DNA from: an uncultured Planctomycetia bacterium
GTDB taxonomy: Bacteria > Omnitrophota > Gorgyraeia > Tantalellales > Tantalellaceae
NCBI GenBank assembly: GCA_964527765.1
Contig: CAZGQR010000002.1
Coordinates: forward strand, 50,986-114,985
Length of the DNA stretch: 64,000 bases
Direction: 5' to 3'
How positions within the stretch are numbered: the first letter of the stretch is position 1; each line of letters opens with the position of its first letter. Below are positions 28,582 through 58,579 of the stretch, one piece after another. A program made the position numbers and the translations under genes. The notes beneath the pieces were generated by a model. The model searched no databases and was not told the DNA's origin. It worked only from the letters and a program-made list of their open reading frames with translations.

Positions 28582-28588
28582 AGGGAAG

Positions 28589-30059: not shown

Positions 30060-30062
30060 CAT

Positions 30063-30911
30063 ATGATCATATCGATTGCCAGCGGAAAAGGCGGCACCGG
30101 AAAGACCACGGTGGCCACGAGTCTCGCTCTTTCAATAGAGCGCGCCGTTCAATTTTTAGACTGTGATGTTGAAGAACCGAACGCGCACATCTTCATAAAG
30201 CCTGATATCGAGAGCACGCAGGCTGTTTTTATTCCCGTGCCCGAGATCGACGAATCCAAATGCGATTATTGCGGCAGGTGTCAGGAAGTCTGCGTTTACA
30301 ACGCGATCGCCGTTATCCCTCCCGCGGAAAAACCCGTCCGCGCGGGAAAAACGCTTATTTTCCCGGAGCTGTGTCACGGGTGCGGCGCCTGTTCTTATTT
30401 TTGCCCGAAAGGAGCCATAAAGGAGGTCAATAGACAAATAGGCGTTGTCGAAAAAGGCAAAAAGGAGGGACTGGAGTTCGTGCACGGCAGGCTCAATATC
30501 GGGGAACCGATGGCTCCGCCGCTGGTAAGAGCGGTCAGACGACATGTCGATCGCGCAAAAACCGTTATAATCGATGCTCCCCCGGGGACATCCTGCCCGG
30601 TCATCACTTCCATAAAGGATACGGATTACTGTATTCTTGTTACCGAACCCACTCCCTTCGGGCTTTACGACCTGATCCTGGCGGTCGAAGTTTTGAAGAA
30701 ACTGAAGATCCCTTTCGGTGTTATTATTAACCGCGCCGGCCTGGGCAACGATGAGACCGATAAGTATTGCAGGAAAGAGAATATCCCCGTTCTCATGAAG
30801 ATACCGTTCAGCAGGGAGATCGCAGCGGCTTATTCCAGGGGCACTGCTGTTGTCGAAGCATTCCCCGAGTATAGAGAACGCTTTATGAAAGTATTTAAGG
30901 ATATAAAATAG
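30063..30911 (+). CDS. MinD/Mrp-superfamily P-loop ATPase with inserted 2x[4Fe-4S] ferredoxin domain
   Basis: Deviant Walker A IASGKGGTGKTT; CDYCGRCQEVCVYNAI and CHGCGACSYFCPKGAI cluster motifs. Confidence 0.8.
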   Translation: MIISIASGKGGTGKTTVATSLALSIERAVQFLDCDVEEPNAHIFIKPDIESTQAVFIPVPEIDESKCDYCGRCQEVCVYNAIAVIPPAEKPVRAGKTLIFPELCHGCGACSYFCPKGAIKEVNRQIGVVEKGKKEGLEFVHGRLNIGEPMAPPLVRAVRRHVDRAKTVIIDAPPGTSCPVITSIKDTDYCILVTEPTPFGLYDLILAVEVLKKLKIPFGVIINRAGLGNDETDKYCRKENIPVLMKIPFSREIAAAYSRGTAVVEAFPEYRERFMKVFKDIK

Positions 30912-30912
30912 A

Positions 30913-31770
30913 ATGAAAGAGTTAGTGATCATAAGCGGTAAAGGCGGAACGGGTAAGACCATACTTACCGCGGCTTTCGCCTCTTTGGCCGAAAACAAGG
31001 TAATGGCTGATTGTGATGTGGACGCGGCGGACCTGCATCTCGTTTTAAAGCCTGCCGTAAAAGAGCGCCACCTGTTCAAGAGCGGGATGACGGCGCTTAT
31101 AGACAAGGGTCTCTGTACGGGGTGCGGGAAGTGTATCGATGTTTGCCGCTTTGATGCCATAGGCGAAGACTTTGTCGTGGATGCTGTCGCCTGTGAGGGC
31201 TGCGCTTTTTGCAGCCATGCGTGCCCGGAAGGGGCCATAAGGATGGAAGAGAACACCGCGGGTCAGTGGTTCATCTCCGACACGAGATTCGGTCCCATGG
31301 TCCACGCAAAACTGGGCATTGCCGAGGAAAATTCCGGCAAGCTTGTGAGCCTGGTCAAGAAAAAAGCCAGGGAGATAGCCGAGAGGCGGAACCTGGAATG
31401 GATAATTGTTGACGGCGCCCCCGGGATAGGGTGCCCGGTCATTGCCTCTATTTCCGGCGTCAGCTGCGCGCTGGTAGTGACCGAGCCGACCGTCTCGGGC
31501 CTGCACGATGCCGACCGGGTAATAAAAGTGGCCAGGCATTTCGGCGCCCCCGTAAGACTTGTGATCAATAAGTATGATTTAAATCCCGAGATGACGGAAA
31601 AGATCGAGGGATATTGCCGGGAGAACGATATACCGCTCGTAGGGAAAATACCTTTTGATGAATCTGTCGTAAAAGCTGTGGTGAGAGCTGAAACAGTGAT
31701 AGAATATTCTCACGGGCCGGCAGGACAGGAGATCAGGAAAATATGGGACAAGTTAAAAGTTGAAATTTAG
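30913..31770 (+). CDS. MinD/Mrp-superfamily P-loop ATPase with inserted ferredoxin domain (second copy)
   Basis: ISGKGGTGKT; CTGCGKCIDVCRFDAI and CEGCAFCSHACPEGAI. Confidence 0.8.
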   Translation: MKELVIISGKGGTGKTILTAAFASLAENKVMADCDVDAADLHLVLKPAVKERHLFKSGMTALIDKGLCTGCGKCIDVCRFDAIGEDFVVDAVACEGCAFCSHACPEGAIRMEENTAGQWFISDTRFGPMVHAKLGIAEENSGKLVSLVKKKAREIAERRNLEWIIVDGAPGIGCPVIASISGVSCALVVTEPTVSGLHDADRVIKVARHFGAPVRLVINKYDLNPEMTEKIEGYCRENDIPLVGKIPFDESVVKAVVRAETVIEYSHGPAGQEIRKIWDKLKVEI

Positions 31771-39344: not shown

Positions 39345-39913
39345 ACGGTATGGATACAAGCGCCGAACAGATCCACCAGGGAAAGATAAACACCGAGCCG
39401 AAGAAGGGTAAGGACAAACGGCTTTTTATCGATCTCGATGTCTGCGCTTCCGGGGAGTGCAAGGAATGCGTCGTCAAGTGCAGTTATTTTTACCACCGCC
39501 AGACCGTGAATAACGGTATCATTTCTATCATAGAGCTTGCCGCGTATGCGCTTGTCTGCCGCAGGTGCGAAGAGCCGCATTGTGTCAATGCCTGTCCGGT
39601 AGAGGCGCTTGAGCAAGAGAAGGAGAAGGACAAGTTTCTGGTAAGGCACAACATGCGGTGTATCAGCTGCGGGTCGTGCTCGCATGCGTGCCCTTACGGC
39701 ACGATATACCCGGAGGCCGTGCCCCTGCTTGTCCACAACTGCGATTTCTGTCTGGACAGGAGGGATGAGAAAGATGAACCGCTTTGCATAACCACCTGTC
39801 CTTACGGGGCGTTGAGCCTGAAAAAGGGCGATATTGAACTGGATGAGAATACTTTTCTCGTGGGGGATAACCTGATAGTCCATTCCACGCACTGGGACCG
39901 GGAGAAGGCATGA
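39335..39913 (+). CDS. Poly-ferredoxin (HycB-like, about four [4Fe-4S] motifs)
   Basis: CRRCEEPHCVNACP, CISCGSCSHACPYG, CDFCLDRRDEKDEPLCITTCPYG. Confidence 0.75.
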   Translation: MGLDGMDTSAEQIHQGKINTEPKKGKDKRLFIDLDVCASGECKECVVKCSYFYHRQTVNNGIISIIELAAYALVCRRCEEPHCVNACPVEALEQEKEKDKFLVRHNMRCISCGSCSHACPYGTIYPEAVPLLVHNCDFCLDRRDEKDEPLCITTCPYGALSLKKGDIELDENTFLVGDNLIVHSTHWDREKA

Positions 39914-40833
39914 TATACGTATTGTATCTTTTATTTTTCGGTTTTTTCCTGACGGCCGCCGTGGGCCTTTTTGCCAGCTGGATCGACAGGAAAGTAACGG
40001 CGCGCGTGCAGTACCGCGTCGGGCCGCCCGTTCTCCAGCCGCTTATCGATATCATAAAACTCCTCGGCAAGGAGACACTTGTCCCGGCGGGCGCTTCAAA
40101 AACGACCTTTCTGCTGGCTCCGGTCCTGGGTCTGGGGAGCGTGATACTGGTCTCGACGCTTTTGTGGGTGAACGATATAAATGTGGGACAGGGTTTTATG
40201 GGGGATATAATAGTGGCCTTATATCTTTTGACGATACCTTCCATAAGCATTATAATCGGGGGTTTTGCTTCGGCCAATCCGCTGGCCAGTCTGGGTGCGT
40301 CCCGGGAGATGAAACTCATCCTCGGATATGAACTCCCGTTCGTTCTTGCGATGCTGGTCCCCGTGATAAAGGCCGGTTATTCTATCAGGATAGGGGATAT
40401 TCTTCTTTTTCAGGCCCGGAGCGGGGTAATAGCCGGAAACCCCTCAGGCATACTGGCTCTGGTGGTGGCCCTGATGTGCGTGCAGGCGAAACTGGCTCTG
40501 GTGCCTTTTGATATCCCCGAGGCCGAAACGGAGATCTCGGGAGGAGCGCTCATCGAATATTCGGGGGCCGGTCTTGCGGTCTATCGCCTCATGAAGAACA
40601 TGCTTCTTTTTACGCTGCCGTTCTTCCTGATAATACTTTTTATGGGCGGTTTAAGGTTCGACGGCATCCATCTATTGTACGGCGTGTTGAAATACGTAGG
40701 GCTTGTGGCCCTGATAACGGTCATAAGGAATACCAATCCGCGGGTCAGGATCGACCAGGCCGTCAAATTCTTCTGGGGACCCATGACGGTCATCGCGGCA
40801 ATAGCGGTAGTGCTGGCTTTTAAAGGTTTATAA
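39910..40833 (+). CDS. Group-4 hydrogenase membrane subunit (NuoH/HycD/EchB/MbhM-like)
   Basis: WIDRKVTARVQYRVGPP is the complex-I subunit 1 signature; 8 TM helices. Confidence 0.85.
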   Translation: MIYVLYLLFFGFFLTAAVGLFASWIDRKVTARVQYRVGPPVLQPLIDIIKLLGKETLVPAGASKTTFLLAPVLGLGSVILVSTLLWVNDINVGQGFMGDIIVALYLLTIPSISIIIGGFASANPLASLGASREMKLILGYELPFVLAMLVPVIKAGYSIRIGDILLFQARSGVIAGNPSGILALVVALMCVQAKLALVPFDIPEAETEISGGALIEYSGAGLAVYRLMKNMLLFTLPFFLIILFMGGLRFDGIHLLYGVLKYVGLVALITVIRNTNPRVRIDQAVKFFWGPMTVIAAIAVVLAFKGL

Positions 40834-40851
40834 GTATAGTAAAGAGGCCAT

Positions 40852-41277
40852 ATGAGTTTCAAGTTGAAAGCACTTTTAAAATCTCCGTGGGTGTTCCATC
40901 TCTCGACGGGCAGTTGCAACAACTGCGACATCGAGATACTGGACTGCCTTACCCCGAGGTTTGACATCGAAAGGTTCGGGATGCTTCTCGCCCCGAGCAT
41001 AAAACATGCGGATGTTCTTCTGGTCACGGGATCCTGTAACAGAAAATCCGCCGAGAGACTGAAGAGACTGTACGAACAGGCGCCCAAACCCTGCCTGGTG
41101 GTCGCGATAGGGGAGTGTTCCCTTTCGAGAGGGATGTTCATACACAGCTATAACTGTCCCGTGCCGTTGGATAAGATCATTCCCGTGGACGTGTACATCC
41201 CGGGCTGTCCGCCTAAACCGGAAGCCATCATCGCGGGCGTGGTGAAGCTGATAGAAAAAGTGAAGAGCGGAAAATGA
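40852..41277 (+). CDS. [NiFe] hydrogenase small subunit (NuoB/HycG/MbhJ-like)
   Basis: GSCNNCDIE...GSCN...GCPPKP carries the NuoB-type proximal cluster cysteines. Confidence 0.85.
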   Translation: MSFKLKALLKSPWVFHLSTGSCNNCDIEILDCLTPRFDIERFGMLLAPSIKHADVLLVTGSCNRKSAERLKRLYEQAPKPCLVVAIGECSLSRGMFIHSYNCPVPLDKIIPVDVYIPGCPPKPEAIIAGVVKLIEKVKSGK

Positions 41278-41747
41278 CGCGCAAAGAGATCTTAAAGAAC
41301 ATACAGGAAAAGTTCAAGAAGGATATAATCGATGTTTTCGACAAGCATCCGAAACGGGTGTATATCGAGATCAAACCCGGATCGATAGTCAAGATCGCCG
41401 GTTATATGTTCAAAGAACTGGGCACAAGGTTCAATATAGCCACGGGGGTGGATCTAAGAGAGCATATGGAGATCCTGTACCATTTCACCGACGAGGATAT
41501 AAACCTGTTGATCTCCCTGAGGGTGAAACTGCCCAAGGATAAATTAGAGATAGATTCGCTTGCTCCTGTTTTCGAAGGCGCGAACTGGATAGAAAGGGAG
41601 ATGCACGAACTTCTGGGTATCACTTTTAAAGGGCATCCTGACATGAGAAGGCTGCTTCTGCCGGACGAATGGCCCGAGGGCGTGTATCCCTTGAGGGCCG
41701 ACTATGAGGAATGGGACGAAAAGGCGATAAGGGACAGGGGATTATAG
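41274..41747 (+). CDS. NuoC/MbhK-like 30 kDa subunit
   Basis: 157 aa; ...NWIEREMHELLGITFKGHPDMRRLLLPDEW is a Complex1_30kDa motif. Confidence 0.8.
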   Translation: MTRKEILKNIQEKFKKDIIDVFDKHPKRVYIEIKPGSIVKIAGYMFKELGTRFNIATGVDLREHMEILYHFTDEDINLLISLRVKLPKDKLEIDSLAPVFEGANWIEREMHELLGITFKGHPDMRRLLLPDEWPEGVYPLRADYEEWDEKAIRDRGL

Positions 41748-41750
41748 AAA

Positions 41751-42935
41751 ATGGCGAAGACAATAGTGCCGATAGGACCGTATCACCCGCTTCAGGAAGA
41801 GCCTGAGTTTTTCAGTCTCACCATGGAGGGCGAGAAGGTCGTCGATATCGACGTCCAGGTCGGCTACAACCACAGGGGCATAGAAAAGCTCTCCGAGATG
41901 AAGACCTTCGACCAGTCCACTTTTGTCATAGAAAGGATCTGCGGAATATGTTCGACAAGCCATCCCTTCGCTTACACAAGGGCGGTCGAGGATATAATCC
42001 CCGTTGAGGTCCCCGAAAGGGCAAAATACATAAGGACGGTAATAGCCGAAGGCGAGAGGGTGCACTCGCACCTTTTGTGGCTCGGGCTCGCGGGGCATTT
42101 CCTGGGATACAATACGGTCTACATGTGGGCATGGAAGCTGAGAGAAGAGATCCTGGACGTCATGGAGATACTCTCCGGCAACAGGAACAATTACGCCATG
42201 TTCAAGCCCGGAGGAGTGAGAAGGGATTTCAAGCCCGAGGACATACCGCTCGTTATCGAAAAACTTGATTCCATTGTTCCTACCATGGAGATGCTTAAAA
42301 AGGCCGTGATAGACGATCCCGTTCTCCACGCCAGGACGAAGGGGATAGGCGTTCTGACAAAAGAGGCGGCCATAGATTTCTGCGCGCTCGGCCCCACTTC
42401 GCGCGCTTCCGGGGTGGCAAGGGACGTGAGAAAAGATTCCCCGTACGGGGCTTACGATAAGATCGAATGGGAGATGATAGTGAGGCATAACGGGGACGTC
42501 TTCGATAAGGTGGTGGTAAGGATACTGGAGATCCTGGAGTCAATAAAGATAATGAAGACCTGTCTTCTGGAACTGCCCTCCGGTGAAATAGACGCCAAAC
42601 TGAAGAGCATCCCTCCGGGAGAGGGTATCGGCCACGTTGAAGCGCCGAGGGGAGAGACCTTTCATTATGTAAGAAGCGACGGCACGAACAGCCCGGTCAG
42701 GCATAAGGTAAGAGCGCCCACGTTCATGAACCTTCCGACCTATAAGGCCACTGTCGTGGGAGAGACGATATCGGACGCGACGATAATCCTCGCGGCCATA
42801 GACCCGTGTTATTGCTGTACGGAGAGGATGGCGGTGCGTGACGTGAAGGGAAAGAAACTCTATAACGGGGAGGATCTGATCCGGCTTTCCCGGGAAAAGA
42901 CCGAGAAGATGAAGCAGAAGAAAGGGCTGAAATGA
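41751..42935 (+). CDS. Group 4 [NiFe]-hydrogenase large subunit (NuoD/HycE/MbhL/EchE-like)
   Basis: N-terminal L1 motif RICGICSTSH and C-terminal DPCYCCTER (DPCxxCxxR); both Ni-Fe ligand cysteine pairs are intact. Confidence 0.85.
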   Translation: MAKTIVPIGPYHPLQEEPEFFSLTMEGEKVVDIDVQVGYNHRGIEKLSEMKTFDQSTFVIERICGICSTSHPFAYTRAVEDIIPVEVPERAKYIRTVIAEGERVHSHLLWLGLAGHFLGYNTVYMWAWKLREEILDVMEILSGNRNNYAMFKPGGVRRDFKPEDIPLVIEKLDSIVPTMEMLKKAVIDDPVLHARTKGIGVLTKEAAIDFCALGPTSRASGVARDVRKDSPYGAYDKIEWEMIVRHNGDVFDKVVVRILEILESIKIMKTCLLELPSGEIDAKLKSIPPGEGIGHVEAPRGETFHYVRSDGTNSPVRHKVRAPTFMNLPTYKATVVGETISDATIILAAIDPCYCCTERMAVRDVKGKKLYNGEDLIRLSREKTEKMKQKKGLK

Positions 42936-43534
42936 ACGGCGAGATCAAGGTCCGCATACAGGAAATGTCCGGGATCATCTCCGAGATGATCGATCTCGTT
43001 TTCCGGGGCTTTATGGAAAATGATATGCATATTCTTGACAAGAGCCTGGACAAGGAACGCGCGCTCGACGATCTGGAAAAAGAGATCACCGCCGGTATCG
43101 TGAAACTTTCCAAAGGGCTCAGCGACAGGGAAAGAAAGAAGCTTGTTATAGCGGGGCAGATCGCCGAGAATATCGAGCGCATGGGCGATGAACTGCGCTA
43201 TCTGACCGAACGCATCGAGCTCAAGATCGCGGATAAGCTTTATTTCAGCGATAAAGGGGTCGAGCAGTATAAGGAAGTTTTTGAGAAGATGCAGAGGTCG
43301 GTGAGCCTGATCGTGAGGTTCCTGGGTGACGATGATGCCGAGGTCCTGGATAAGGTCCTGGAGAACGGCGACCAGATCAAGGAATTGATCGAAAGATACA
43401 GGGCCGAGCATATCGACCGTCTGGCCAGGGGGATATGCGAGCCGAGGGCGGCGAACATGTATTTTGACATGCTTGATTTTACCGGGAACATCGCCAGGCA
43501 CTGCACGAATATAGCGAGGATCTCCAAAAAATAA
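42932..43534 (+). CDS. PhoU-domain protein (two PhoU-like repeats)
   Basis: QIAENIERMGDELRYL and FTGNIARHCTNIARI resemble the paired PhoU E(D)-x3-D/ERIGD...HATNIA motifs. Confidence 0.45.
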   Translation: MNGEIKVRIQEMSGIISEMIDLVFRGFMENDMHILDKSLDKERALDDLEKEITAGIVKLSKGLSDRERKKLVIAGQIAENIERMGDELRYLTERIELKIADKLYFSDKGVEQYKEVFEKMQRSVSLIVRFLGDDDAEVLDKVLENGDQIKELIERYRAEHIDRLARGICEPRAANMYFDMLDFTGNIARHCTNIARISKK

Positions 43535-48939: not shown

Positions 48940-49267
48940 TATTATAGGGCTGGTATTTATAGCTGTCGGTCTTGCTTTTGACTTTTTCGGGTGTCTCGGC
49001 CTCGTAAGGCTCCCGGATGTTTATAACCGCCTGCAGGCCGCGACGAAAAGCGTTACCCTGGGGACGTGCAGTATCCTTTTCGGGACGTTCCTGATCGTGG
49101 GGGCCAATGCCGCGGGGCTGAAATCTCTTCTTTGTATCATATTTATTTTGCTGACCTCGCCTGTGGCGGCGCATGCGGTGGCAAGAGGCGCCCACAGGGC
49201 CGGATTCAAACTATGGGATAAAAGCGTTATTGACAGGTACGCTGAGGACAAGGAAGGCGAGATATAA
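48932..49267 (+). CDS. MnhG (MrpG)-like subunit
   Basis: MSDIIGLVFIAVGLAFDFFGCLGLVRLPDVYNRLQAATKSVTLG is the typical MnhG/PhaG N-terminus. Confidence 0.75.
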   Translation: MSDIIGLVFIAVGLAFDFFGCLGLVRLPDVYNRLQAATKSVTLGTCSILFGTFLIVGANAAGLKSLLCIIFILLTSPVAAHAVARGAHRAGFKLWDKSVIDRYAEDKEGEI

Positions 49268-49903
49268 ATGAGAATACCGAAGCCGAAGATAAGAGAGATA
49301 ATAGAAGCCGTGAAAGCGCTTATCAAAGGTCCGTATACGTCAAGGTTCCCCAAGGTCGGGCATGAGCCGTATCCGAGTTTCCGGGGGCAGCCGAAGTATA
49401 ACGACGAGAAATGCGTGGGGTGCCTGGCCTGCGTGCATGTCTGTCCGGTCGGGGCGCTTGATTTTAAGGATTCCGCCGATCCCAAGGATCCCAAAAGGAC
49501 GTTATACCACCACACGGATACCTGTATATTCTGCGGACAGTGTGAGGCTGCGTGCATAGCCGATAACGAGGGAATAAAGCTTTCCAGGGACTGGGAACTT
49601 TCTTTCTTTGAAAGAAAAGAAGCCACGGAGAGCATCGAAAAAGAACTGCAGCTGTGCGAGATATGCGGCGATCCCATCGCCTGCAAGGATCATTTAAAAT
49701 GGATATCTCAAAAGTTAGGTGAATTGACCTATTCAAGCCCTACCTTGTATCTGTCCCGTCTTAAAAGTCTCGGCATCGTAGATGAGAATATTATTTCCGC
49801 GATGAAGGATTACGGTCGTTCCGACAGGACAAAGATCCTCTGCGCCCGCTGCAGGAGGGAAACGACTCTTACCACGAAAGAGTCCGAAACGACTAAAAAG
49901 TAA
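49268..49903 (+). CDS. NuoI/HycF/MbhN-like 2x[4Fe-4S] ferredoxin subunit
   Basis: CVGCLACVHVCPVGAL and CIFCGQCEAACIA. Confidence 0.75.
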   Translation: MRIPKPKIREIIEAVKALIKGPYTSRFPKVGHEPYPSFRGQPKYNDEKCVGCLACVHVCPVGALDFKDSADPKDPKRTLYHHTDTCIFCGQCEAACIADNEGIKLSRDWELSFFERKEATESIEKELQLCEICGDPIACKDHLKWISQKLGELTYSSPTLYLSRLKSLGIVDENIISAMKDYGRSDRTKILCARCRRETTLTTKESETTKK

Positions 49904-49928
49904 CCGTAAAGGACAGGATTTCCTCAGG

Positions 49929-50411
49929 ATGAAGAATAATATGCCGGAAGTGTCTAAAATTCTTTCGAAAGTGTTTAAAGGCAGGACCGTTATCGTCGGC
50001 ATGGGCAACGTTCTCAAGGGGGACGATGCTTTCGGTCCGAGGCTGGTCGAAAGGCTGAAGGGCGATGCAAAAGCCGTGTGCATAGACGCGGGAAGCGCAC
50101 CTGAGAATTATACGGGCAAGATAATAAAGGAAAGACCCGAGACGATCATTATCGCCGATGCGGTACATCTGGGGCTGAAGCCCGGGGAGTGCGACGTTTT
50201 AAGAAAAGACGATATCGTCAGGAGCGGATTTACGACGCATGATATTTCTCCGGTCATGTTCATCGAATATCTGGAAAACCAAACGGGAGCGGATATTTAT
50301 ATGCTGGCTGTCCAGCCGGAGACTGTCGGCTTTGGAGAAGAGATGTCCGACAGCGTTAAAAAGGCGCTTGAGGAGATCTCTGTACTGATAAAGGAGGCGC
50401 AAGATGCATGA
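49929..50411 (+). CDS. hycI: Hydrogenase maturation endopeptidase (HycI/HybD family)
   Basis: VIVGMGNVLKGDDAFGPRLVERL...IDAG...IIADAV are the canonical motifs. Confidence 0.85.
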   Translation: MKNNMPEVSKILSKVFKGRTVIVGMGNVLKGDDAFGPRLVERLKGDAKAVCIDAGSAPENYTGKIIKERPETIIIADAVHLGLKPGECDVLRKDDIVRSGFTTHDISPVMFIEYLENQTGADIYMLAVQPETVGFGEEMSDSVKKALEEISVLIKEAQDA

Positions 50412-50646
50412 AACACATTTGATAGAGCCCGTGATAAAGGGCATATCCGAGCATGCCCGGAAAGAAGGAGCAGGATCGGTGAGCAAGGTCAGGCTGAAAG
50501 TAGGGGCCCTTACCTGCGTCAGGGAGGACTCCTTCAGGGAGACTTTCAGTGTCCTGGCGAAGGGGACCGTTCTCGAGAATGCGGAACTGGAGATCACGTT
50601 CTTCCCGGGCTCGAGGGTCGAAGTGGTGTCGTTCGATATTGATTAG
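50404..50646 (+). CDS. HypA-like N-terminal (nickel-binding) domain protein lacking the zinc-finger domain
   Basis: 80 aa; starts MHETHLIEPVI... like the MHE Ni site of HypA, but no CxxC...CxxC follows. Confidence 0.4.
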   Translation: MHETHLIEPVIKGISEHARKEGAGSVSKVRLKVGALTCVREDSFRETFSVLAKGTVLENAELEITFFPGSRVEVVSFDID

Positions 50647-50654
50647 ATCACTGA

Positions 50655-50722
50655 TGTTCGAATTGTTTTCGGGAACCATGCCCGCTCGGTCGTTCGACGT
50701 CCCGCTCGAAACAATTCAAACA
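50655..50722. repeat. Long imperfect inverted repeat (16-17 bp arms, about 35-nt spacer)
   Basis: TGTTCGAATTGTTTTCG ... CGAAACAATTCAAACA, in the 100-nt gap between the hypA-like and hypF-like genes. Confidence 0.5.
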
Positions 50723-50746
50723 TCAACAAACGAATAAATAAATATT

Positions 50747-51826
50747 ATGAACAGGACAATACTCGCGCTCGGCGCGGACATAAAGAACAGATCTCTTCTG
50801 GGAAGAGGGCGGGAACTGCGCTTCGGACCCGATATAGGGGACCTGAGCGATGCCGCGAACTATGAAAGGTTCCGGAAGGAAGCGGCGCTTCTGGCGAAGA
50901 GAGCCGGCACCAGGCCGGGTATCGTCGCCTGTGACCTTCACCCGGGATATTTCTCGGCCAGGTTCGCGAAGGACGGCCGGAAATGGTTCGCTAAAAATTA
51001 CAGGACCGTTCCTGTCCAGCATCACCACGCGCACGTAGCGAGCGTGATGCAGGAATACGGCCTGGAAGGTCCTGTCATAGGCGTGTCTTTTGACGGGACG
51101 GGTTACGGGACGGACGGGAACATATGGGGCGGTGAGTTCCTCATTGTCGATAAAGCCGGGTTTAAAAGGGCGGGTCATCTCAGGTACCGCATGATGCCCG
51201 GAGGCGACAGGGTGGTCTCCGAACCGTGGAGGATGGTACTGAGCATACTGGGGGAAAAGGGAGCCGGTTTGATCAAAAAGGTGGATCGAAAGAATAAAGA
51301 TCTTGTCCTGGCAATGATGTCAGGGAATATAAACTCACCGCTGACTTCAAGCGCGGGACGCCTTTTTGATGCCGCTGCCGCACTTCTGGGTGTATGTGAA
51401 TACGCCTCGCGCGAAGCGGAAGGCCCCGTAAAGCTTGAATCCATGTGTGAAGGAAACGTAGAGGAAAGTTACGGATTTGAGATATTAAAAGATGATGACC
51501 GCGATGTAATAGATACCGGGGGTTTGTTCCTGGGGATGGCCGCTGATATGAAAAAAGGTAAAGACAAGGGAGTTATAGCCGCCAGGTTCCACAATTCCAT
51601 GGCTGAAGTTATCGTTAAGACGGCCGGGAGGATATCGAAACGTTCCGGCATCATGGATATCGCGCTGAGCGGTGGGGTCTTTCAGAACGATCTCTTAAGG
51701 ACCGGGGTCATGAAAAGATTGGGCCGTTCGGGTTTCAAGGTGTTCATCAACAGTTCCATCCCTGTCAACGACCTGAACATAGCATTGGGGCAGTATTATG
51801 TGTCTGGCAATTCCTGCAAGAGTTGA
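50747..51826 (+). CDS. hypF: HypF C-terminal (Kae1/YgjD-like carbamoyl-transfer) domain protein; the acylphosphatase, Zn-finger and YrdC parts of canonical HypF are absent
   Basis: 359 aa; ILALGADIKN... and IALSGGVFQNDLL match the HypF C-terminal domain; canonical HypF is about 750 aa. Confidence 0.6.
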   Translation: MNRTILALGADIKNRSLLGRGRELRFGPDIGDLSDAANYERFRKEAALLAKRAGTRPGIVACDLHPGYFSARFAKDGRKWFAKNYRTVPVQHHHAHVASVMQEYGLEGPVIGVSFDGTGYGTDGNIWGGEFLIVDKAGFKRAGHLRYRMMPGGDRVVSEPWRMVLSILGEKGAGLIKKVDRKNKDLVLAMMSGNINSPLTSSAGRLFDAAAALLGVCEYASREAEGPVKLESMCEGNVEESYGFEILKDDDRDVIDTGGLFLGMAADMKKGKDKGVIAARFHNSMAEVIVKTAGRISKRSGIMDIALSGGVFQNDLLRTGVMKRLGRSGFKVFINSSIPVNDLNIALGQYYVSGNSCKS

Positions 51827-52055
51827 GAGTATCGAAAAGAGCGCTGCCGTCGTGGATTTCGGCGGCGTGCGTAAAAAGATCTCGCTTGGGGTCCTGAGCG
51901 GCGTGAAAAAGGGAGATCATGTCCTGGTCCATGCCGGGTTCGCGATAGGAAAAGTAGAGAGGGAAGAGGCGGAGGACACGCTGAAAGTATTGCGGGAGCT
52001 GAAGGAGGCGGTGAGAGAAGAAAGCGGCATGGCGGGGACAGGCCCTTTTAACTGA
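51798..52055 (+). CDS. hypC: Hydrogenase assembly chaperone HypC
   Basis: MCLAIPARV..., N-terminal Cys2, 85 aa. Confidence 0.85.
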   Translation: MCLAIPARVESIEKSAAVVDFGGVRKKISLGVLSGVKKGDHVLVHAGFAIGKVEREEAEDTLKVLRELKEAVREESGMAGTGPFN

Positions 52056-52056
52056 T

Positions 52057-53067
52057 ATGAAGAAGATAAAGCTGATGGAAGTATGCGGGACGCATACAAT
52101 GGCGATCGCGAAGGCGGGTATCAAAAAACTCCTTCCCGAGGGAATAGAGCTCATCTCCGGTCCGGGTTGCCCCGTATGCGTGACCTCCCAGGAAGATATC
52201 GACAGGGCGATAAAGATCGCCGGCGTGAAGGATGTCATCATGGCTACCTTCGGCGACATGATGCGGGTGCCGGGAAGCCTGGGGAGCCTCGAGGATATTA
52301 AAAGACGCGGTGCGGATGTGCGGATCGTGTACTCATGCATCGATGCGCTGGATATGGCAGAAAAGAACCCTTCCAAAAAAGTCGTTTTCATGGGGGTCGG
52401 TTTTGAGACGACCTCTCCCACCGTGGCGGCGACCGTGATAGAGGCAAAAAGGCGGAAGGCGCGGAATTTTTTCGTCCTGTCGGATTTCAAGCTTATTTTC
52501 CCGGCTCTTGAGGCTATCGCCGGGTCCGGCAGGGTCGGGGTGGACGGCTTTTTGTGCCCGGGGCATGTCAGTGTCATCACGGGGAGCGTTCCTTATGAAA
52601 GAATAGCGAAGCGCTACGGGAAGGCCTGCGTTATAACAGGGTTTGACGATGCTGATATTATAAAGGGAATAAAGCGCCTCGTCGACCAGATACAGAGAAA
52701 CGAGAGCGAGGTCGAGATCGAGTACAGAAGGGCTGTCGGCAAAGAAGGCAATGTTACCGCAAAGAAGGTCTTGCGCGCGGTGTTCAAACCGGGCCCGGCG
52801 CGGTGGAGAGGGCTTGGGAAGATAGAAAAAAGCGGCCTTAAGTTAAGGAAAACATATGAGAGGTTCGATGCCGAGAAAGAATTTAAGATCAAAATCCCCA
52901 GACCGAAGCCGCATAAGGGCTGCATATGCGGGGATGTTCTCCAGGGGATAAAGTCGCCTGTTGACTGCAAACTGTTCGGGAAAAAATGTGACCCCCGCAG
53001 TCCCGTGGGGCCCTGCATGGTTTCCTCGGAAGGCACTTGCGCGGCATATTTTAAGTACGGGGCATAG
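52057..53067 (+). CDS. hypD: Hydrogenase formation protein HypD
   Basis: CGTHT, GPGCPVCV and FETT motifs; 336 aa. Confidence 0.9.
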   Translation: MKKIKLMEVCGTHTMAIAKAGIKKLLPEGIELISGPGCPVCVTSQEDIDRAIKIAGVKDVIMATFGDMMRVPGSLGSLEDIKRRGADVRIVYSCIDALDMAEKNPSKKVVFMGVGFETTSPTVAATVIEAKRRKARNFFVLSDFKLIFPALEAIAGSGRVGVDGFLCPGHVSVITGSVPYERIAKRYGKACVITGFDDADIIKGIKRLVDQIQRNESEVEIEYRRAVGKEGNVTAKKVLRAVFKPGPARWRGLGKIEKSGLKLRKTYERFDAEKEFKIKIPRPKPHKGCICGDVLQGIKSPVDCKLFGKKCDPRSPVGPCMVSSEGTCAAYFKYGA

Positions 53068-53068
53068 T

Positions 53069-54061
53069 ATGGCACACAAAAATATAACCCTGGCTCACGG
53101 CAACGGCGGCAGGCTCATGCACGAGCTTATTGACGTGTTCCGTTCGAAGTTCTCGAACAGGATACTGGATGAATTATCGGATGCCGCCGAGATCCGTTTG
53201 CGGGAAGACCGGCTGGCCTTCAGCACGGATTCGTTCGTGGTAAAACCCCTGTTTTTCCCCGGCGGCGATATAGGTAAACTCGCCGTTCATGGCACGGTAA
53301 ACGATATATCCATGAAAGGCGCAAAGCCGCTGTTCATCTCTCTTGCCTTAATTCTCGAGGAGGGACTTGAGCTTTCCGTGCTTGAGAGAATAGTCTCTTC
53401 CATAAAACAAGCTTCCCGTAAAGCCGGGGTCAAGGTCGTTACGGGCGATATAAAGGTCGTTGAAAAAGGCGCCGCCGATAAGATCTTCATAAATACTTCC
53501 GGTATAGGCGTTATCGGTCATTCCGGGAAAAGTGTAGGTTCCAGGGCGCGAAAGGGCGATTCTGTCGTGATCAACGGCGGGATAGCCGAGCACGGGATGG
53601 CGATCCTGAATGCCAGGGAGGGTCTGGGTTTTGAATCCGGTATAAGAAGCGATTGCCGCAACCTGAACTTTGAAGTTGAGAGGTGCCTTAAGGCGTCAAG
53701 GAATATAAGTGTCATGCGCGACCCTACAAGAGGGGGGCTTGCCACGGCGCTGAACGAGATAGCGTCCGCCTCAAATCTTGGCATAGAGATCCACGAAAAG
53801 GATATACCGGTCAAGCCGGGGGTAAAAAGATTGTGTGATGTTCTGGGGCTTGACCCCCTGTACATCGCCAATGAGGGAAAATTCGTCTGTTTTGTCAAAG
53901 AAAAGGACGCGCCGAAGATAGAGCGCTCGATGGGTCGGGGCGCCCGGATCATAGGAAAAGTCACTTCCGCCCACAAAAAAGAGGTCCGTCTGCGGACACG
54001 GATCGGTTCAAGCCGTATCCTGCCGGCCCTGGAATCGGATCAACTCCCCCGCATCTGCTGA
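53069..54061 (+). CDS. hypE: Hydrogenase maturation protein HypE
   Basis: MAHKNITLAHGNGG...; PurM-like fold; ends in the conserved ...PRIC; the track ORF (52961) begins earlier in frame. Confidence 0.85.
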   Translation: MAHKNITLAHGNGGRLMHELIDVFRSKFSNRILDELSDAAEIRLREDRLAFSTDSFVVKPLFFPGGDIGKLAVHGTVNDISMKGAKPLFISLALILEEGLELSVLERIVSSIKQASRKAGVKVVTGDIKVVEKGAADKIFINTSGIGVIGHSGKSVGSRARKGDSVVINGGIAEHGMAILNAREGLGFESGIRSDCRNLNFEVERCLKASRNISVMRDPTRGGLATALNEIASASNLGIEIHEKDIPVKPGVKRLCDVLGLDPLYIANEGKFVCFVKEKDAPKIERSMGRGARIIGKVTSAHKKEVRLRTRIGSSRILPALESDQLPRIC

Positions 54062-54075
54062 TATCGAAAAAAGCT

Positions 54076-54121
54076 TGACGTCGGGCAACAACTGTGTTAC
54101 GATTTTGAAAATCGTAACACA
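54076..54121 (+). promoter_or_regulatory. Promoter (TTGACG-17-TACGAT) overlapped by a perfect 27-bp palindrome, a candidate NikR operator
   Basis: GTGTTACGATTTT-G-AAAATCGTAACAC at 54095-54121 overlaps the -10, directly upstream of the nikR GTG start at 54134. The half-site GTAACAC/TAACACG recurs twice, at 54569-54576 and 54588-54596, upstream of the porin gene. Confidence 0.55.
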
Positions 54122-54133
54122 AGGAGATCCAAA

Positions 54134-54550
54134 GTGGCGGAATTAATGCGTTTCGGCGTATCGCTGGAAAAAGACCTTCTTGATAAGTTTGACAGGATTA
54201 TCAGGATCGAAAATTATTCCAACCGTTCCGAAGCCATCCGCGACCTGATAAGGGAAAAGCTTGTCAGGAAAGAGTGGAAGGGAAAAGCCGAGGTAGCCGG
54301 AGCCGTTATCCTCGTTTATGATCATCACAAAAGGGACCTTTTGAATTCTCTCGTGGATATCCAGCACGACTTTCATCACCTGATCATCGCCAACCAGCAT
54401 GTTCACCTGGACCATCACAATTGTCTTGAGATCATTGTGGTCAAGGGAAAGCCCGGAGAGATCGAAAAACTTGCCCACAAATTAAAATCCGCCAAGGGGG
54501 TCAAACACGGCCAGCTTACGGCGGCTACGACAGGAAAAGAACTGGCATAA
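54134..54550 (+). CDS. nikR: Nickel-responsive regulator NikR (ribbon-helix-helix + ACT-like metal-binding domain)
   Basis: VSLEKDLLDKFDRIIRIENYSNRSEAIRDLIRE is an RHH region; the C-terminus has HHLIIANQHVHLDHHNC with His/Cys Ni ligands. Confidence 0.85.
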   Translation: MAELMRFGVSLEKDLLDKFDRIIRIENYSNRSEAIRDLIREKLVRKEWKGKAEVAGAVILVYDHHKRDLLNSLVDIQHDFHHLIIANQHVHLDHHNCLEIIVVKGKPGEIEKLAHKLKSAKGVKHGQLTAATTGKELA

Positions 54551-54622
54551 AAATTTTTTTGAGATGCAATAACACGAATATGGTATTTGTAACACGGATA
54601 AAAAAGTAAGGAGGAGAAAGAG

Positions 54623-56047
54623 ATGTTTTTCAGGAAAGCCGTTACGGTTATCGGCGCGACGAGCATGTTTTTATTTTTTTGTATCTCTGCCTTCGGGGCG
54701 GATGTGCCGTCGAATGCGGAACTTCTCAAGGAACTCAGAGAGATGCGAAAAATAATAAAAAAGCAGGATGAAAGGATCGCGGTGCTGGAAAAACAGCTGC
54801 AGGAACAAAGTAAAGCGGTGGAAGAACAGCAAAGTGCGAGTGACGCCCGTAAGCGGGAAATGGACCTTTTACACGGCAAAGTCGCGGAAACGCAAAAGGC
54901 CCTGGCGGTGAGGGAAGCGGCGCCGGCGGACGCGCGCAAGGAAGAGCTGGACCGCTTGCGCGGCGTAGCGGAAGCCTTCGAGGGACTCATTATCAACGCG
55001 GGGATAACCGCTGTCGGGCAGGGCACGCCGGACGCCAATAACGCCGGCGGAGGGGAAGACTCCAGATTCGACGGGTCGTACTCGGTGGATGTTGAACTTG
55101 AGAAACAGTTCGACGATTATGGGCTGGCATTTATTCATCTGGAAGCCGGCCAGGGCGATACCATAGAAGGGGACCTGGCGGTTTTCAGCAATGTCAATAG
55201 GGACGCCGGGGATTCAAACGCGCATGTCGACGTGACGGAAGCCTGGTACGAGCACTTTCTGTTTGACAGGCAGGTGATAATCACGGGCGGGAAACTTGAC
55301 GCCTCGGGCTTTATCGATACCAACGAGTACGCGAACGATGAGTGTTCGCAGTTCCTCGGGCGCATGTTCAGGAATTCCGACGCGATCGATTGGCCTGACG
55401 ATAATGCCCTGGGCGGGCGGATAATGCTTGCCCCGGAAATGCTGAAGGCCTTTGAGCTTGATGCCGTTTACATGGACGAGGACGGCGACTGGGAGGAGAT
55501 ATTCAACAAACCGTTTGCCGGCGTTCAGCTTAATTTCATGCCGGCCAGGGCGTTTGACTACGACGAGGATATGTGGGGAGGCAACTACCGCGTGTACTTC
55601 TGGTATAACGGGGCGGACCATACCAAGTGGAAAGACGCCGAAAAGACGAAGGAGACCAACTGCGGCGTCGGCCTGAGCTGTGACCAGATGCTTACGGAAG
55701 TTTTCGGCCTGTTTGGCCGGTTCGGATGGCAGAATCCCGAAGTGAGCGTTCTGGAATATCACTGGTCCGTCGGCGGGCAGATGACCGGTCAATATTGGAA
55801 CAGGGAAAGGGATGTTGTCGCCGTGGCTGTGGGGCAGGCGATCCCCGGCAAGGAATACGGCGATGCCGGTAATCCTCATGACAACGAAACACACCTCGAA
55901 GCTTACTACGCTTATAAAGTGAATGACCATCTTACCCTGTCTCCCGATATGCAGTTTATCTGGGATCCCAACGGCGTGGGAAACAGCGCCGACGGCGACA
56001 ACGATTGTATATTTGTATATGGCGTAAGAGGCCAGGTCGATTTTTAA
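54623..56047 (+). CDS. Outer-membrane beta-barrel protein (porin-like) with N-terminal signal peptide and coiled-coil segment
   Basis: Signal peptide MFFRKAVTVIGATSMFLFFCISAFGA; a coiled-coil of about 100 aa; alternating beta-strand pattern; a C-terminal ...YGVRGQVDF with a terminal Phe (beta-signal). Confidence 0.55.
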   Translation: MFFRKAVTVIGATSMFLFFCISAFGADVPSNAELLKELREMRKIIKKQDERIAVLEKQLQEQSKAVEEQQSASDARKREMDLLHGKVAETQKALAVREAAPADARKEELDRLRGVAEAFEGLIINAGITAVGQGTPDANNAGGGEDSRFDGSYSVDVELEKQFDDYGLAFIHLEAGQGDTIEGDLAVFSNVNRDAGDSNAHVDVTEAWYEHFLFDRQVIITGGKLDASGFIDTNEYANDECSQFLGRMFRNSDAIDWPDDNALGGRIMLAPEMLKAFELDAVYMDEDGDWEEIFNKPFAGVQLNFMPARAFDYDEDMWGGNYRVYFWYNGADHTKWKDAEKTKETNCGVGLSCDQMLTEVFGLFGRFGWQNPEVSVLEYHWSVGGQMTGQYWNRERDVVAVAVGQAIPGKEYGDAGNPHDNETHLEAYYAYKVNDHLTLSPDMQFIWDPNGVGNSADGDNDCIFVYGVRGQVDF

Positions 56048-56061
56048 AAAAGGGGGGAAAG

Positions 56062-56697
56062 ATGCATATACCGGATGGTTTTTTGACCGCCAGCACATGG
56101 GTGCCCGCCTGGGTCCTGTCCGCAGGCGGTATCGGGTATTGCCTGAGAAAGACGGGGGAGATACTTAGAGACAGGATGATCCCCTTGATGGGGGTCATGG
56201 CGGCTTTTATTTTCGCGGCGCAGATGCTTAACTTTCCCGTAGTCGGGGGCACGTCCGGCCATCTGCTGGGGGGAGTACTGGCCGCGGTTCTGCTCGGGCC
56301 GTATGCCGGAGCTCTCGTGATAACAGTGGTTTTGATCGTCCAGTGTTTTGTTTTTCAGGACGGGGGAGTGACGGCGTTGGGCGCCAACGTATTTAATATG
56401 GCTATTGTCGGAGCTATGGGGGGATATTTTCTCTACGGTTTTCTAAGGCGGGGCATAAAGGGCACTGCCGGTCTTATTGTGGGGGCCGGTGTTGCCGCAT
56501 GGGCGTCCGTGGTCGTTGCTTCGATCGTTTGCGCGGTTGAACTTGCCTTATCGGGTACCTCGCCGATAAGGATCGCGTTGCCGGCCATGGCGGGTATCCA
56601 CGCGCTCATAGGTATAGGAGAAGCGATCATAACCTGCCTGGTCGTGTCGTTCGTCGCGAAGGTAAGGCCCGACCTGATATATAAGATCGCAGAATGA
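56062..56697 (+). CDS. cbiM: ECF-transporter substrate-capture component CbiM/NikM (Ni/Co)
   Basis: N-terminus MHIPDGFL, with the conserved Met1-His2 metal-binding start; about 6 TM. Confidence 0.85.
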   Translation: MHIPDGFLTASTWVPAWVLSAGGIGYCLRKTGEILRDRMIPLMGVMAAFIFAAQMLNFPVVGGTSGHLLGGVLAAVLLGPYAGALVITVVLIVQCFVFQDGGVTALGANVFNMAIVGAMGGYFLYGFLRRGIKGTAGLIVGAGVAAWASVVVASIVCAVELALSGTSPIRIALPAMAGIHALIGIGEAIITCLVVSFVAKVRPDLIYKIAE

Positions 56698-56753
56698 GAT
56701 CATGTAAACCCCGCCGGAGAGGCCTGCCTTCCCCGGCGGGGCAAGAAGGAGAG

Positions 56754-57047
56754 ATGACGATGAAAAAGAAGGAAATATTTTTCGGTATCCTGGCAGCGCT
56801 TTTTTTGGCCGTAATGCTTTCTCCGTTCGCTTCTCCCTGGCCGGACGGTCTGGAAAAAGTTGCCGAGGATAAAGGGTTCCTGGAAAAGGGCGAGGGCGAG
56901 CCCCTTCTTATTTCGCCCGTTCCCGATTATGTCTGGCCGAAACTGGAAAACGAAAAGGTCGCTACAGCGGTCGCCGGCGCGGCCGGAACGCTGATCACGT
57001 TCGGAGGAGGCATTGCCCTGGCGGCCCTTATCAAACGGCGGGGCTGA
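56754..57047 (+). CDS. PDGLE-domain small membrane protein (CbiN/NikL-like auxiliary component)
   Basis: MTMKKKEIFFGILAALFLAVMLSPFASPWPDGLEKV contains the PDGLE motif; a TM helix lies at each end. Confidence 0.7.
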   Translation: MTMKKKEIFFGILAALFLAVMLSPFASPWPDGLEKVAEDKGFLEKGEGEPLLISPVPDYVWPKLENEKVATAVAGAAGTLITFGGGIALAALIKRRG

Positions 57048-57822
57048 TACATTGCGGCATCATTTTATAGACGAATACAGTGACGGGGGAAGTTTCATTC
57101 ACCGGCTGGACCCGAGAGCGAAACTCGCGGGCCTTCTCATGTTCATATTATTCGTGATAAGCACGCCCCCGGACTCTTTTATCTGTTTCGCGCTTTACGG
57201 CGCGCTTATCTGCGGCTTGATCTTGCTATCCGGCATACCTCCGGCGTTTATGATCAAAAGATCCCTGTGCATATTCCCGTTCGTGTTTCTGGTCGCCATG
57301 TTCATTCCTTTTTTCAGGGAAGGGGAGATCGTCTGGACGGGATCTTTCGGCCCGATGCATCTTGCGGTTACGCGCGACGGCCTGATGGTCTTTTGGAACG
57401 TTCTTTCCAAGGGATACCTGAGCGTTCTGTGCCTGATCCTCCTTATGAGCAGCACCGGGTTCGTTGACCTTTTAAAGGGGATGGAAAGATTAAAGCTGCC
57501 GGGACTTTTTATCATGATACTTTCGTTCATGTATCGCTATATTTTTCTGGTGGAAGATGAATTGATGATCATGAAACGGGCAAAAGATTCCCGGTCGACA
57601 GGAGGGTCGAGGTGGTTTCACATAAGGGCCCTGGCCAATATAATAGGGGTACTGTTCATAAAAAGCTATGAAAGAGCGGAAAACGTTTATCTTGCCATGT
57701 GCTCGAGAGGATTTAACGGCTGTGTGAATACTTTGAACGTTTTCCGGTTAAGGGCCGGCGATTGGGGTTTTCTGGTTACCCTGGCCGGCGTGTTGGCGGG
57801 GATCCGCTTTGCATGGGGATAA
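57013..57822 (+). CDS. cbiQ: ECF transporter transmembrane (T) component CbiQ
   Basis: HRLDPRAKL... and overall CbiQ topology. The start is uncertain: the track ORF overlaps the upstream gene, and a later start near 57052 is possible. Confidence 0.75.
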   Translation: MPWRPLSNGGADTLRHHFIDEYSDGGSFIHRLDPRAKLAGLLMFILFVISTPPDSFICFALYGALICGLILLSGIPPAFMIKRSLCIFPFVFLVAMFIPFFREGEIVWTGSFGPMHLAVTRDGLMVFWNVLSKGYLSVLCLILLMSSTGFVDLLKGMERLKLPGLFIMILSFMYRYIFLVEDELMIMKRAKDSRSTGGSRWFHIRALANIIGVLFIKSYERAENVYLAMCSRGFNGCVNTLNVFRLRAGDWGFLVTLAGVLAGIRFAWG

Positions 57823-58579
57823 GATGCGCAAAAAAGTCATCAAGATCAGGGAATTAAGTTATAAGTATCCCGACGGGACAAGGGCGCTGGATAATGTTGA
57901 CATGGATGTCTTCGAAGGCGATTCTGTCGGGATCATTGGCCCCAACGGGGCGGGGAAATCCACGCTCCTGTTCCATCTCAACGGTATTTTGGAGGGACAA
58001 GGGCGGATCAGCATAATGGGCATGGAAATAGAGAAACAGAACCTGGCTTATATCAGGAGCAAGGTGGGGCTGGTTTTTCAGAATCCGGATGACCAATTGT
58101 TCATGCCCACGGTTTTTGATGACGTGGCGTTCGGTCCGATCAACATGAAATTGACAGAGGATCAGGTCAGGGAGACGGCCAGTAAGGCCCTGTCGGATGT
58201 GGACATGTCAGATGCCGCCGGACGCTCCTCACATCATCTGAGTTTCGGAGAAAAGAAAAGGGTCTCATTGGCGACAGTTCTGTCCATGCATCCGGAAATA
58301 TTGGCTTTGGACGAGCCCACCAGCAATCTGGACCCAAGACACAGGCGGGAATTGATAAGCCTTCTTAGGCAGCTGCCTCTCACAAAGGTGATCACGACCC
58401 ACGACCTGGAACTGGTCGTGGACACATGTTCGAGGGTCGCGTTGATGGACGGCGGAAGAGTGGTCGCCTCGGGCGCAACCAGGGACATGCTTGCAAATAA
58501 GCACCTGCTTGAATCTCATCATCTTGAAGTTCCGGCTTCACTTCTGCGCGAACGATCGTACCTTAACTCCCGAATATAA
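57809..58579 (+). CDS. cbiO: ECF transporter ATPase CbiO
   Basis: Walker A GPNGAGKST, signature LSFGEKKRVSLA, Walker B ILALDEPT. Confidence 0.85.
   Translation: MHGDKMRKKVIKIRELSYKYPDGTRALDNVDMDVFEGDSVGIIGPNGAGKSTLLFHLNGILEGQGRISIMGMEIEKQNLAYIRSKVGLVFQNPDDQLFMPTVFDDVAFGPINMKLTEDQVRETASKALSDVDMSDAAGRSSHHLSFGEKKRVSLATVLSMHPEILALDEPTSNLDPRHRRELISLLRQLPLTKVITTHDLELVVDTCSRVALMDGGRVVASGATRDMLANKHLLESHHLEVPASLLRERSYLNSRI

Follow-up and report, generated by a model that had tools for sequence, protein, structure and literature searches.

A short hyp gene set with a zinc-finger-less HypA and a one-domain HypF tied to a group-4 [NiFe] hydrogenase operon in an Omnitrophota contig

We analyzed a 64,000-nucleotide (64 kb) stretch of DNA, hereafter the window, from contig CAZGQR010000002.1 of an uncultured bacterium labelled Planctomycetia and placed by GTDB in the Omnitrophota. 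Directly behind an operon for a membrane-bound [NiFe] hydrogenase it carries hydrogenase maturation (hyp) genes of which two encode short proteins: an 80-amino acid HypA without its zinc domain (mini-HypA) and a 359-amino acid HypF that consists of the Kae1-like domain only (HypF-C). Our results show that these genes are conserved, are under purifying selection, and go with a single type of hydrogenase. On balance, although with modest confidence, we read them as a working, streamlined set of maturation factors for a [NiFe] hydrogenase of group 4 (Mbh/Mrp type, reported as 4g). The six proteins HypA to HypF count as a universal kit for assembly of the [NiFe] cofactor, and reviews present both the zinc domain of HypA and the three-step reaction of HypF as general. 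The two short forms together with the lack of a nearby HypB make a combination that is new as a variant of a known system. The maturation genes of the window are the following.

49929-50411, + strand: HycI-type large-subunit C-terminal endopeptidase (Pfam HycI, 62.9 bits; TIGR00072, 109 bits against a cut-off of 47)
50404-50646, + strand: mini-HypA, 80 amino acids (Pfam HypA, 58.9 bits), overlapping hycI by 8 nt
50747-51826, + strand: Kae1-like-domain-only HypF, 359 amino acids (Pfam HypF_C and HypF_C_2 only)
51798-52055, + strand: HypC, starting MCLAIP with its N-terminal Cys2 (HupF_HypC, 89.8 bits; TIGR00074, 80.5 bits against 48), overlapping the end of hypF by 29 nt
52057-53067, + strand: HypD (Pfam HypD, 489 bits; TIGR00075, 463.5 bits against 192.8)
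53069-54061, + strand: HypE with the C-terminal PRIC carbamoylation site (AIRS and AIRS_C; TIGR02124, 428.7 bits against 251.6), the ATG at 53069 being the best start

An earlier note on this DNA had named these six genes at the same positions and had called hypC, hypD, and hypE intact; our scans bear this out, the latter three scoring above their NCBIfam cut-offs. In some public gene calls for an identical contig, HypC begins only at an internal Met (67 amino acids; L001:11106-11309), by which the essential N-terminal Cys is lost, and HypD begins 14 residues late (322 amino acids; L001:11353-12321), by which the MEVCGTHT motif is lost.

Mini-HypA begins with MHETH and contains one Cys and no CxxC motif. 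It covers positions 1-69 of the 112 positions of the Pfam HypA profile and passes the threshold of 28.9 bits, falls below the cut-off of the NCBIfam equivalog TIGR00100 (59.5 versus 88.1 bits), and matches residues 1-64 of the Thermococcus kodakarensis HypA. When aligned by MAFFT with canonical HypAs (those of Escherichia coli and Cupriavidus necator and five from related loci), residues 1-68 pair with their N-terminal part and residues 69-80 with their C-terminal strand, leaving a gap of ~34 residues precisely over both CxxC motifs. These data are in agreement with the earlier description of a HypA-like frame that has the MHE start and no CxxC. An AlphaFold2 model built with 44 relatives in the alignment (pLDDT 94.7) has an alpha-beta-alpha-beta-beta fold, and the best 14 PDB matches of this model in Foldseek were all HypA, with the T. 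kodakarensis protein (3a43) on top at a query TM-score of 0.89. As modeled, mini-HypA is the HypA nickel-binding domain with the zinc finger cleanly excised. The MHE start, the alpha/beta nickel domain, and the hydrogenase neighborhood are common to it and to canonical HypA/HybF (E. coli, Helicobacter pylori, and T. kodakarensis; 3a43, 6g81), whereas the whole Zn(Cys)4 domain of the latter, the ~34 residues of the gap, is missing.

The family is under constraint. A length of exactly 80 amino acids is shared by nearly all of its 120 best homologues, at 74-89% identity, more than 100 relatives of the same length are 60-89% identical, and the family is better conserved than HypF-C. Residues invariant in 42-44 aligned relatives include Met-1, His-2, Glu-3, His-5, Pro-9, Gly-13, and His-17; neither His-5 nor His-17 occurs in the aligned HypAs of E. 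coli, C. necator, and T. kodakarensis. The median ratio of nonsynonymous to synonymous variation (pN/pS) is 0.23, with synonymous sites saturated. Because the relatives keep the exact length, an identity of 60-89%, and this low ratio, the frame at 50404-50646 is coding, and the condition named in the earlier note, that it might prove non-coding, can be set aside. We also considered a pseudogene or frameshift origin and rejected it: no CxxC remnant was present in any frame of positions 50590-50760, which include the 100-nt gap between the mini-HypA gene and hypF, and the length of 80 residues is conserved.

Zinc-less HypAs are found well beyond this family. An exhaustive phmmer search with mini-HypA against 1.84 billion cluster representatives returned 312 matches, the best 150 of which we classified. 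Among these 150 were 49 zinc-less proteins of 76-92 amino acids that matched over their full length at identities down to 26%, next to 52 canonical HypAs with at least two CxxC motifs. Identities as low as 26% indicate that the zinc-less forms make up many separate clusters, 49 of them among these 150 representatives. One of them, P0460 (80 amino acids, proteobacterial-looking), follows HoxF/U/Y/H-like genes, a protease, and a cyclic nucleotide (cNMP)-binding protein, and another, P0384, comes after a 443-amino acid large subunit and its protease. Judged from these sequences, loss of the zinc domain is recurrent and extends across several hydrogenase groups. His-5 of the MHExH motif was present in 17 of the 49 zinc-less and 3 of the 52 canonical proteins (odds ratio 8.7, p = 3e-4, in a sample biased toward the His-5-bearing query), and it might make up for a nickel ligand that disappeared along with the zinc-domain region. 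A 2025 review gives the two-domain HypA architecture as general (PMC12134894), and we found no description of a zinc-less HypA in the open-access literature. The zinc-less HypA is a widespread variant that has fallen into an annotation gap, since such proteins fail the NCBIfam HypA equivalog cut-off.

HypF-C matches Pfam HypF_C (87 bits) and HypF_C_2 (260 bits) and nothing else; the Pfam scan found no YrdC-like (PF01300), acylphosphatase (PF00708), or zinc-finger (PF07503) domain in it. The earlier note had taken it for the C-terminal Kae1-like domain of HypF on account of a GGVFQN motif, which lies at amino acids 309-314, and had proposed aligning 50747-51826 with full-length proteins. In this alignment, residues 3-353 pair with 400-745 of the Caldanaerobacter HypF (761 amino acids) and 401-758 of the T. 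kodakarensis HypF (772 amino acids), so that the start of HypF-C corresponds to residue ~396-400 and a domain boundary at residue ~400 is confirmed. Against TIGR00143, HypF-C covers profile positions 391-739 of 741 and scores 252.8 bits, below the cut-off of 466.1. The motifs of the Kae1 His/His/Asp/Asp metal site and nucleotide pocket, HHHAH, DGTGYG, GGVFQN, and ND..LGQ, are all kept in the alignment. Truncation is the rule among its relatives: out of more than 7,600 homologues, every one of the top 120 has the same two domains and a length of 313-407 amino acids; save for one near-identical copy (99%), they are 55-75% identical to HypF-C, and every one with a named source comes from a Candidatus Omnitrophota metagenome-assembled genome (MAG).

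A one-domain HypF has a precedent, which the earlier note had not brought up, just as it had not mentioned that zinc-less HypAs are widespread and that one of them stands beside HypB. HypF1 of C. necator (Ralstonia eutropha) H16, encoded on the megaplasmid pHG1, is a Kae1-only protein of 394 amino acids that aligns end to end with HypF-C (residues 2-353) at 36% identity, and its gene likewise stands directly before hypC-hypD-hypE. HypF1 reportedly can sustain maturation in C. necator after deletion of HypF2 (Wolf et al. 1998). The two systems differ in several respects. The C. necator hypF1 is preceded by canonical hypA1 and hypB1, and the strain also has the full-length HypF2; C. necator is an aerobe with hydrogenases of groups 1, 2, and 3, whereas the window host is of an anaerobe type with a group-4 enzyme and no HypB nearby; and here a whole candidate phylum has the short HypF as its usual form. 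HypF-C is a new, phylum-wide instance of an already known truncated type, and its truncation likely arose independently of that of HypF1.

The linkage of the short genes to one type of operon was examined in related loci, which we obtained from a scan of GTDB species representatives; it yielded 45 loci with mini-HypA, and some of our counts are over 46 loci. The 45 come mostly from Omnitrophota MAGs, with a few labelled Planctomycetia, Elusimicrobiota, Nitrospirota, and others, and include a complete 1.43-Mb Omnitrophota chromosome (CP070780.1). In all 45, mini-HypA stands directly after HycI at the 3' end of the same Mbh/Mrp operon, a constancy by which it behaves as an operon-specific accessory of the group-4 Mbh/Mrp hydrogenase. 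HypF-C, HypC, HypD, and HypE come after mini-HypA in 19-23 loci, with NikR also following hypE in 5, and the hypCDE-linked copy of HypF is the Kae1-only form in 23 of 46. Clustering of open reading frames (ORFs) showed that the structural families of the operon (antiporter-like and 4Fe-4S proteins) recur in 32-44 of the 46 loci. Within the window, the large subunit keeps both Cys pairs (RICGICSTSH and DPCYCCTER, with the four Cys ligands) and has a 36-amino acid C-terminal extension, features by which nickel insertion and HycI cleavage should be needed. Mini-HypA is linked to this hydrogenase by its genomic position after HycI and, as a putative nickel binder, may deliver the metal to this subunit.

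We searched for the missing functions at increasing distance from the cluster. Pfam scans of all larger ORFs of the 64-kb window gave no HypB/CobW, YrdC/Sua5, acylphosphatase, or zf-HYPF match, so that the earlier statement that the window holds no hypB stands. The ~10 kb on each side of the window contained no hyp genes, and ~87 kb of a 203-kb contig with window-identical proteins, which add these flanks, contained neither hypB nor HypF N-terminal domains. The same contig does encode a separate enzyme of the YrdC family, a 337-amino acid Sua5 (PF01300 and Sua5_C; L055:20-1033; ENA ERZ27256778 k141_346678), whose gene lies ~5 kb upstream of the window start. A phmmer search with the E. coli HypB (E<1e-3) found no match within ±10 kb in any of the 46 loci; the same query scores 213-230 bits on the HypB of loci L057 and L058, so that a HypB in range would be detectable. 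Likewise, 45 of the 46 loci had no HypF N-terminal domain within ±10 kb. Searching with the N-terminal half of the one full-length HypF, from locus L023, gave 120 best matches in Nitrospira, Manganitrophus, Acidobacteriota, and others and none with an Omnitrophota name, a weak negative. The possibility that a conserved operon gene of another kind serves as a HypB or YrdC surrogate was rejected, as ORF clustering over the 46 loci recovered only structural subunits, HycI, mini-HypA, and HypF/C/D/E.

Published gene content extends the search to one Omnitrophota MAG. The accessible part of the KEGG Orthology (KO) table of Seymour et al. 2023 (PMC10066038) gives Omnitrophota genome 231 (Velamenicoccia; 92.7% complete, 0% contamination) one copy each of K04651, K04653, K04654, K04655, and K04656 (hypA, hypC, hypD, hypE, and hypF), together with acyP, tsaC/sua5, and carB, and no K04652 (hypB). 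The supplementary tables of PMC8542988 contained no hyp entries.

Taken as a working module, the gene set would operate as follows. HypC, HypD, and HypE would build the Fe(CN)2CO unit canonically, with HypF-C performing only the last HypF half-reaction, the transfer of the carbamoyl group to HypE. The carbamoyl-adenylate would be supplied in trans; its most plausible source is a separate enzyme of the YrdC family such as the Sua5 on the same contig. This proposal is modeled on TsaC/Sua5 and TsaD/Kae1 in t6A synthesis, where the YrdC-like and Kae1-like domains are separate proteins, and on TobZ/GdmN: in these systems the YrdC-like part makes the acyl-adenylate and the Kae1-like part transfers the carbamoyl group. 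The two routes differ in that t6A synthesis passes threonylcarbamoyl-AMP to tRNA, whereas the HypF route passes carbamoyl-AMP to HypE. Mini-HypA would act as an operon-specific nickel chaperone that docks on the large subunit via its retained nickel domain. In the T. kodakarensis HypA-HypB structure, high-affinity binding of nickel depends on a His that lies outside the N-terminal motif; the invariant His-5 in MHETH may supply such a nickel ligand in cis, which would lower the need for HypB. A NikR-controlled porin and an energy-coupling factor (ECF) importer encoded next door would secure nickel, and with the supply secured HypB is probably absent or dispensable in the window organism. Finally, HycI would cut off the 36-residue extension of the large subunit.

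The main rival to this proposal takes the short proteins for hydrogenase-specific paralogues that only fit the pathway to the group-4 enzyme, and it assigns the essential chemistry to a canonical HypA and HypB and a full-length HypF from other parts of the genome, as with HybF/HypA in E. coli or HypF1/HypF2 in C. necator. We regard it as possible but rather doubtful. It draws on the coexistence of truncated HypF1 with full-length HypF2 in C. necator (PMC9100943) on the constant tie of mini-HypA to a single operon type, and on the loci L023, L026, L032, and L034. Several observations weigh against the streamlined reading. In the Nitrospirota locus L023, mini-HypA occurs together with a 785-amino acid HypF, the only full-length one among the loci, a 120-amino acid HypA, and a second protease, and in L026, L032, and L034 it occurs together with a canonical zinc-containing HypA beside another group-4 hydrogenase. 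The zinc-less HypA P0460 is followed directly by a canonical HypB (MCTTCGC start and His-rich stretch; L057:8001-8909, L058:2192-3127), so a small HypA does not by itself imply the loss of HypB. The KO evidence comes from one MAG and does not tell whether its single hypF is the short form. Furthermore, C. necator HypF1, thought to need pre-made carbamoyl-adenylate (Fan et al., PMC9100943), was inactive in anaerobic E. coli (PMC9100943, PMC7460606), by which a supply of carbamoyl-adenylate in trans is not guaranteed. The genome-wide absence of HypB and full-length HypF has only indirect support, from the ~87 kb of contig, the related loci, and the one MAG. What speaks against spare paralogues is that the short HypF is itself the hypCDE-linked copy in 23 of 46 loci, that all 120 of its best homologues are truncated, that no Omnitrophota name appears among the 120 best matches to the HypF N-terminal half (weak as this negative is), that the KO table gives genome 231 a single hypF and no hypB, and that the ~87 kb around the cluster contain no such genes. 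The earlier note had offered the choice between missing functions encoded elsewhere and a non-canonical route; owing to the hypCDE linkage, the uniform truncation, and genome 231, the evidence leans to a lineage-wide streamlined system.

Other readings of the same genes fare worse. HypF-C could be self-sufficient, making carbamoyl-AMP from ATP and carbamoyl phosphate (or carbamate) or transferring the group directly from carbamoyl phosphate. ATP, AMP, and carbamoyl-AMP have been seen bound in the Kae1-like domain of related carbamoyltransferases, although adenylation in HypF/TobZ-type enzymes is assigned to the YrdC-like domain (PMC9633730); the operon has no conserved partner gene, which would fit self-sufficiency, and the failure of HypF1 in anaerobic E. 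coli does not. We consider this unlikely, and a Kae1 pocket that makes carbamoyl-AMP less likely than a separate YrdC-family enzyme. The earlier note had offered the upstream MinD-like ATPases (30063-31770) as a HypB replacement in nucleotide-driven nickel delivery, for which the Mrp/MinD-family ATPase-type HypB of Thermococcales is a non-GTPase precedent (3vx3, 5aun; PMC12134894). Both are P-loop proteins of the MinD/ParA family with 2x[4Fe-4S] ferredoxin inserts; they lie ~18 kb upstream of the hyp genes, not adjacent to hypA, in a Fur/DUF5320/NifX-like cluster, and a methyltransferase, a radical-SAM protein, OsmC, DnaJ, and a permease stand between this cluster and the hydrogenase operon. 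Their PDB matches are ferredoxin modules and MinD (40 bits), and to 3vx3 they are similar over the P-loop only (26.7 bits). The same pair accompanies the hyp genes, between hypE and nikR, in only 1 of 46 other loci (L011, 15550-17251). The proposal is unsupported by these data, and we rate it as very improbable. A last reading, in which the hyp cluster is degenerating and its short genes are remnants in decay or artefacts of gene calling, is refuted by the conservation data. Both proteins miss their NCBIfam equivalog cut-offs, as this would predict, yet their lengths and high identities are conserved in hundreds of relatives, pN/pS is 0.23, the fold is confidently modeled, the catalytic motifs are intact, and no frameshifted remnants are seen.

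If the streamlined reading is carried further, a whole candidate phylum and other lineages that share the operon may mature a [NiFe] hydrogenase with a minimal Hyp set that has no HypB, an 80-residue HypA whose N-terminal MHExH motif is by itself a nickel site of high affinity, and a HypF of which only the transfer domain is left, with carbamoyl-AMP made under anoxia by a housekeeping YrdC-family enzyme such as Sua5 outside its t6A role. We put this forward as speculative. If true, it would redefine the minimal maturation machinery and speak against the idea that a truncated HypF can function in aerobes only. A natural set in which HypA has no zinc domain, HypF keeps one of its four domains, and HypB is probably missing would be a ready minimal set and a test of which pathway parts are dispensable. 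It could serve to define the contribution of the zinc finger and of HypB, to find the source of carbamoyl-adenylate when HypF cannot make any, and to make group-4 H2-evolving hydrogenases easier to produce in other hosts.

The + strand of the window includes one long hydrogenase locus, from the Rex-like regulator to the Ni/Co importer. Besides the maturation genes, the window holds the following features; the boundaries within the importer are those of the gene calls of an identical public contig.

28111-31770: Fur-family regulator, DUF5320 protein, two NifX/NifB-like proteins (Nitro_FeMo-Co), and the two MinD-like ATPases (30063-31770)
from 36848, + strand: Rex-like regulator
between the Rex-like regulator (36848) and 39910, + strand: electron-input Fe-S and flavin proteins
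from 39910, + strand: NuoH-like membrane subunit (Pfam NADHdh); the core of the group-4 membrane-bound [NiFe] hydrogenase spans 39910..42935 (core Pfam set NADHdh, Oxidored_q6, Complex1_30kDa, and Complex1_49kDa with NiFeSe_Hases)
40852-41277, + strand: hydrogenase small subunit
from 41274, + strand: 30-kDa subunit (Pfam Complex1_30kDa)
41751-42935, + strand: [NiFe] large subunit, 394 amino acids (Pfam Complex1_49kDa and NiFeSe_Hases)
42932-43534, + strand: PhoU-domain protein, 200 amino acids
43534-49267, + strand: Mrp/Mnh antiporter-type subunits (Pfam Proton_antipo_M, MbhD/MbhE, MnhB, MNHE, MrpF, and PhaG)
49268-49903, + strand: 4Fe-4S protein, 211 amino acids (Pfam Fer4), completing the hydrogenase operon
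54134..54550, + strand: NikR nickel-responsive repressor (Pfam RHH_1 and NikR_C)
54623-56047, + strand: OprB-family porin (Pfam OprB)
56062-58579, + strand: ECF-type Ni/Co importer comprising CbiM/NikM (56062-56697), a PDGLE protein, CbiQ, and an ABC ATPase (Pfam CbiM, PDGLE, CbiQ, and ABC_tran)

Mrp-linked [NiFe] enzymes of Omnitrophota have been put in group 4g (PMC8542988, PMC10066038). The PhoU-domain gene lies inside the hydrogenase operon, overlaps the stop codon of the large subunit gene by 4 nt, and occurs in only 5 of 46 loci. The adjacency of nikR suggests that the ECF importer is specific for nickel. A promoter and terminator scan of positions 49000-56200 gave nothing exceeding the shuffled background.

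Some related loci hold additional maturation genes. L026 (10968-12723), L032 (18186-19947), and L034 (2178-3341) encode nearby a second, smaller group-4-type large subunit (359 amino acids) with its own zinc-containing HypA of 111-150 amino acids, again with no HypB in range. In about 10 loci, the gene after mini-HypA encodes a fusion of 435-441 amino acids in which a HypC domain at the N terminus (starting MCYAIPG; Pfam, 51.8 bits) is followed by a radical-SAM/BATS module like that of HydE or BioB (L015:10355-11668, L017:10255-11568, L040:10282-11589; also in L018, L022, L038, L041, L042, L047, and L049). It is followed by a Rex-like regulator and then by a 499-amino acid HydG/ThiH-like radical-SAM protein. 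A HypC fused to an [FeFe]-maturase-like enzyme beside a [NiFe] operon is unusual and might be a sign that HydG-type CO/CN synthesis and [NiFe] maturation are connected.

In the importer of the window, CbiM/NikM most likely starts at an internal MHIPDG rather than at the upstream TTG of the ORF. This start is another N-terminal Met-His metal-binding motif, located behind NikR and a few kilobases downstream of the MHE of mini-HypA.

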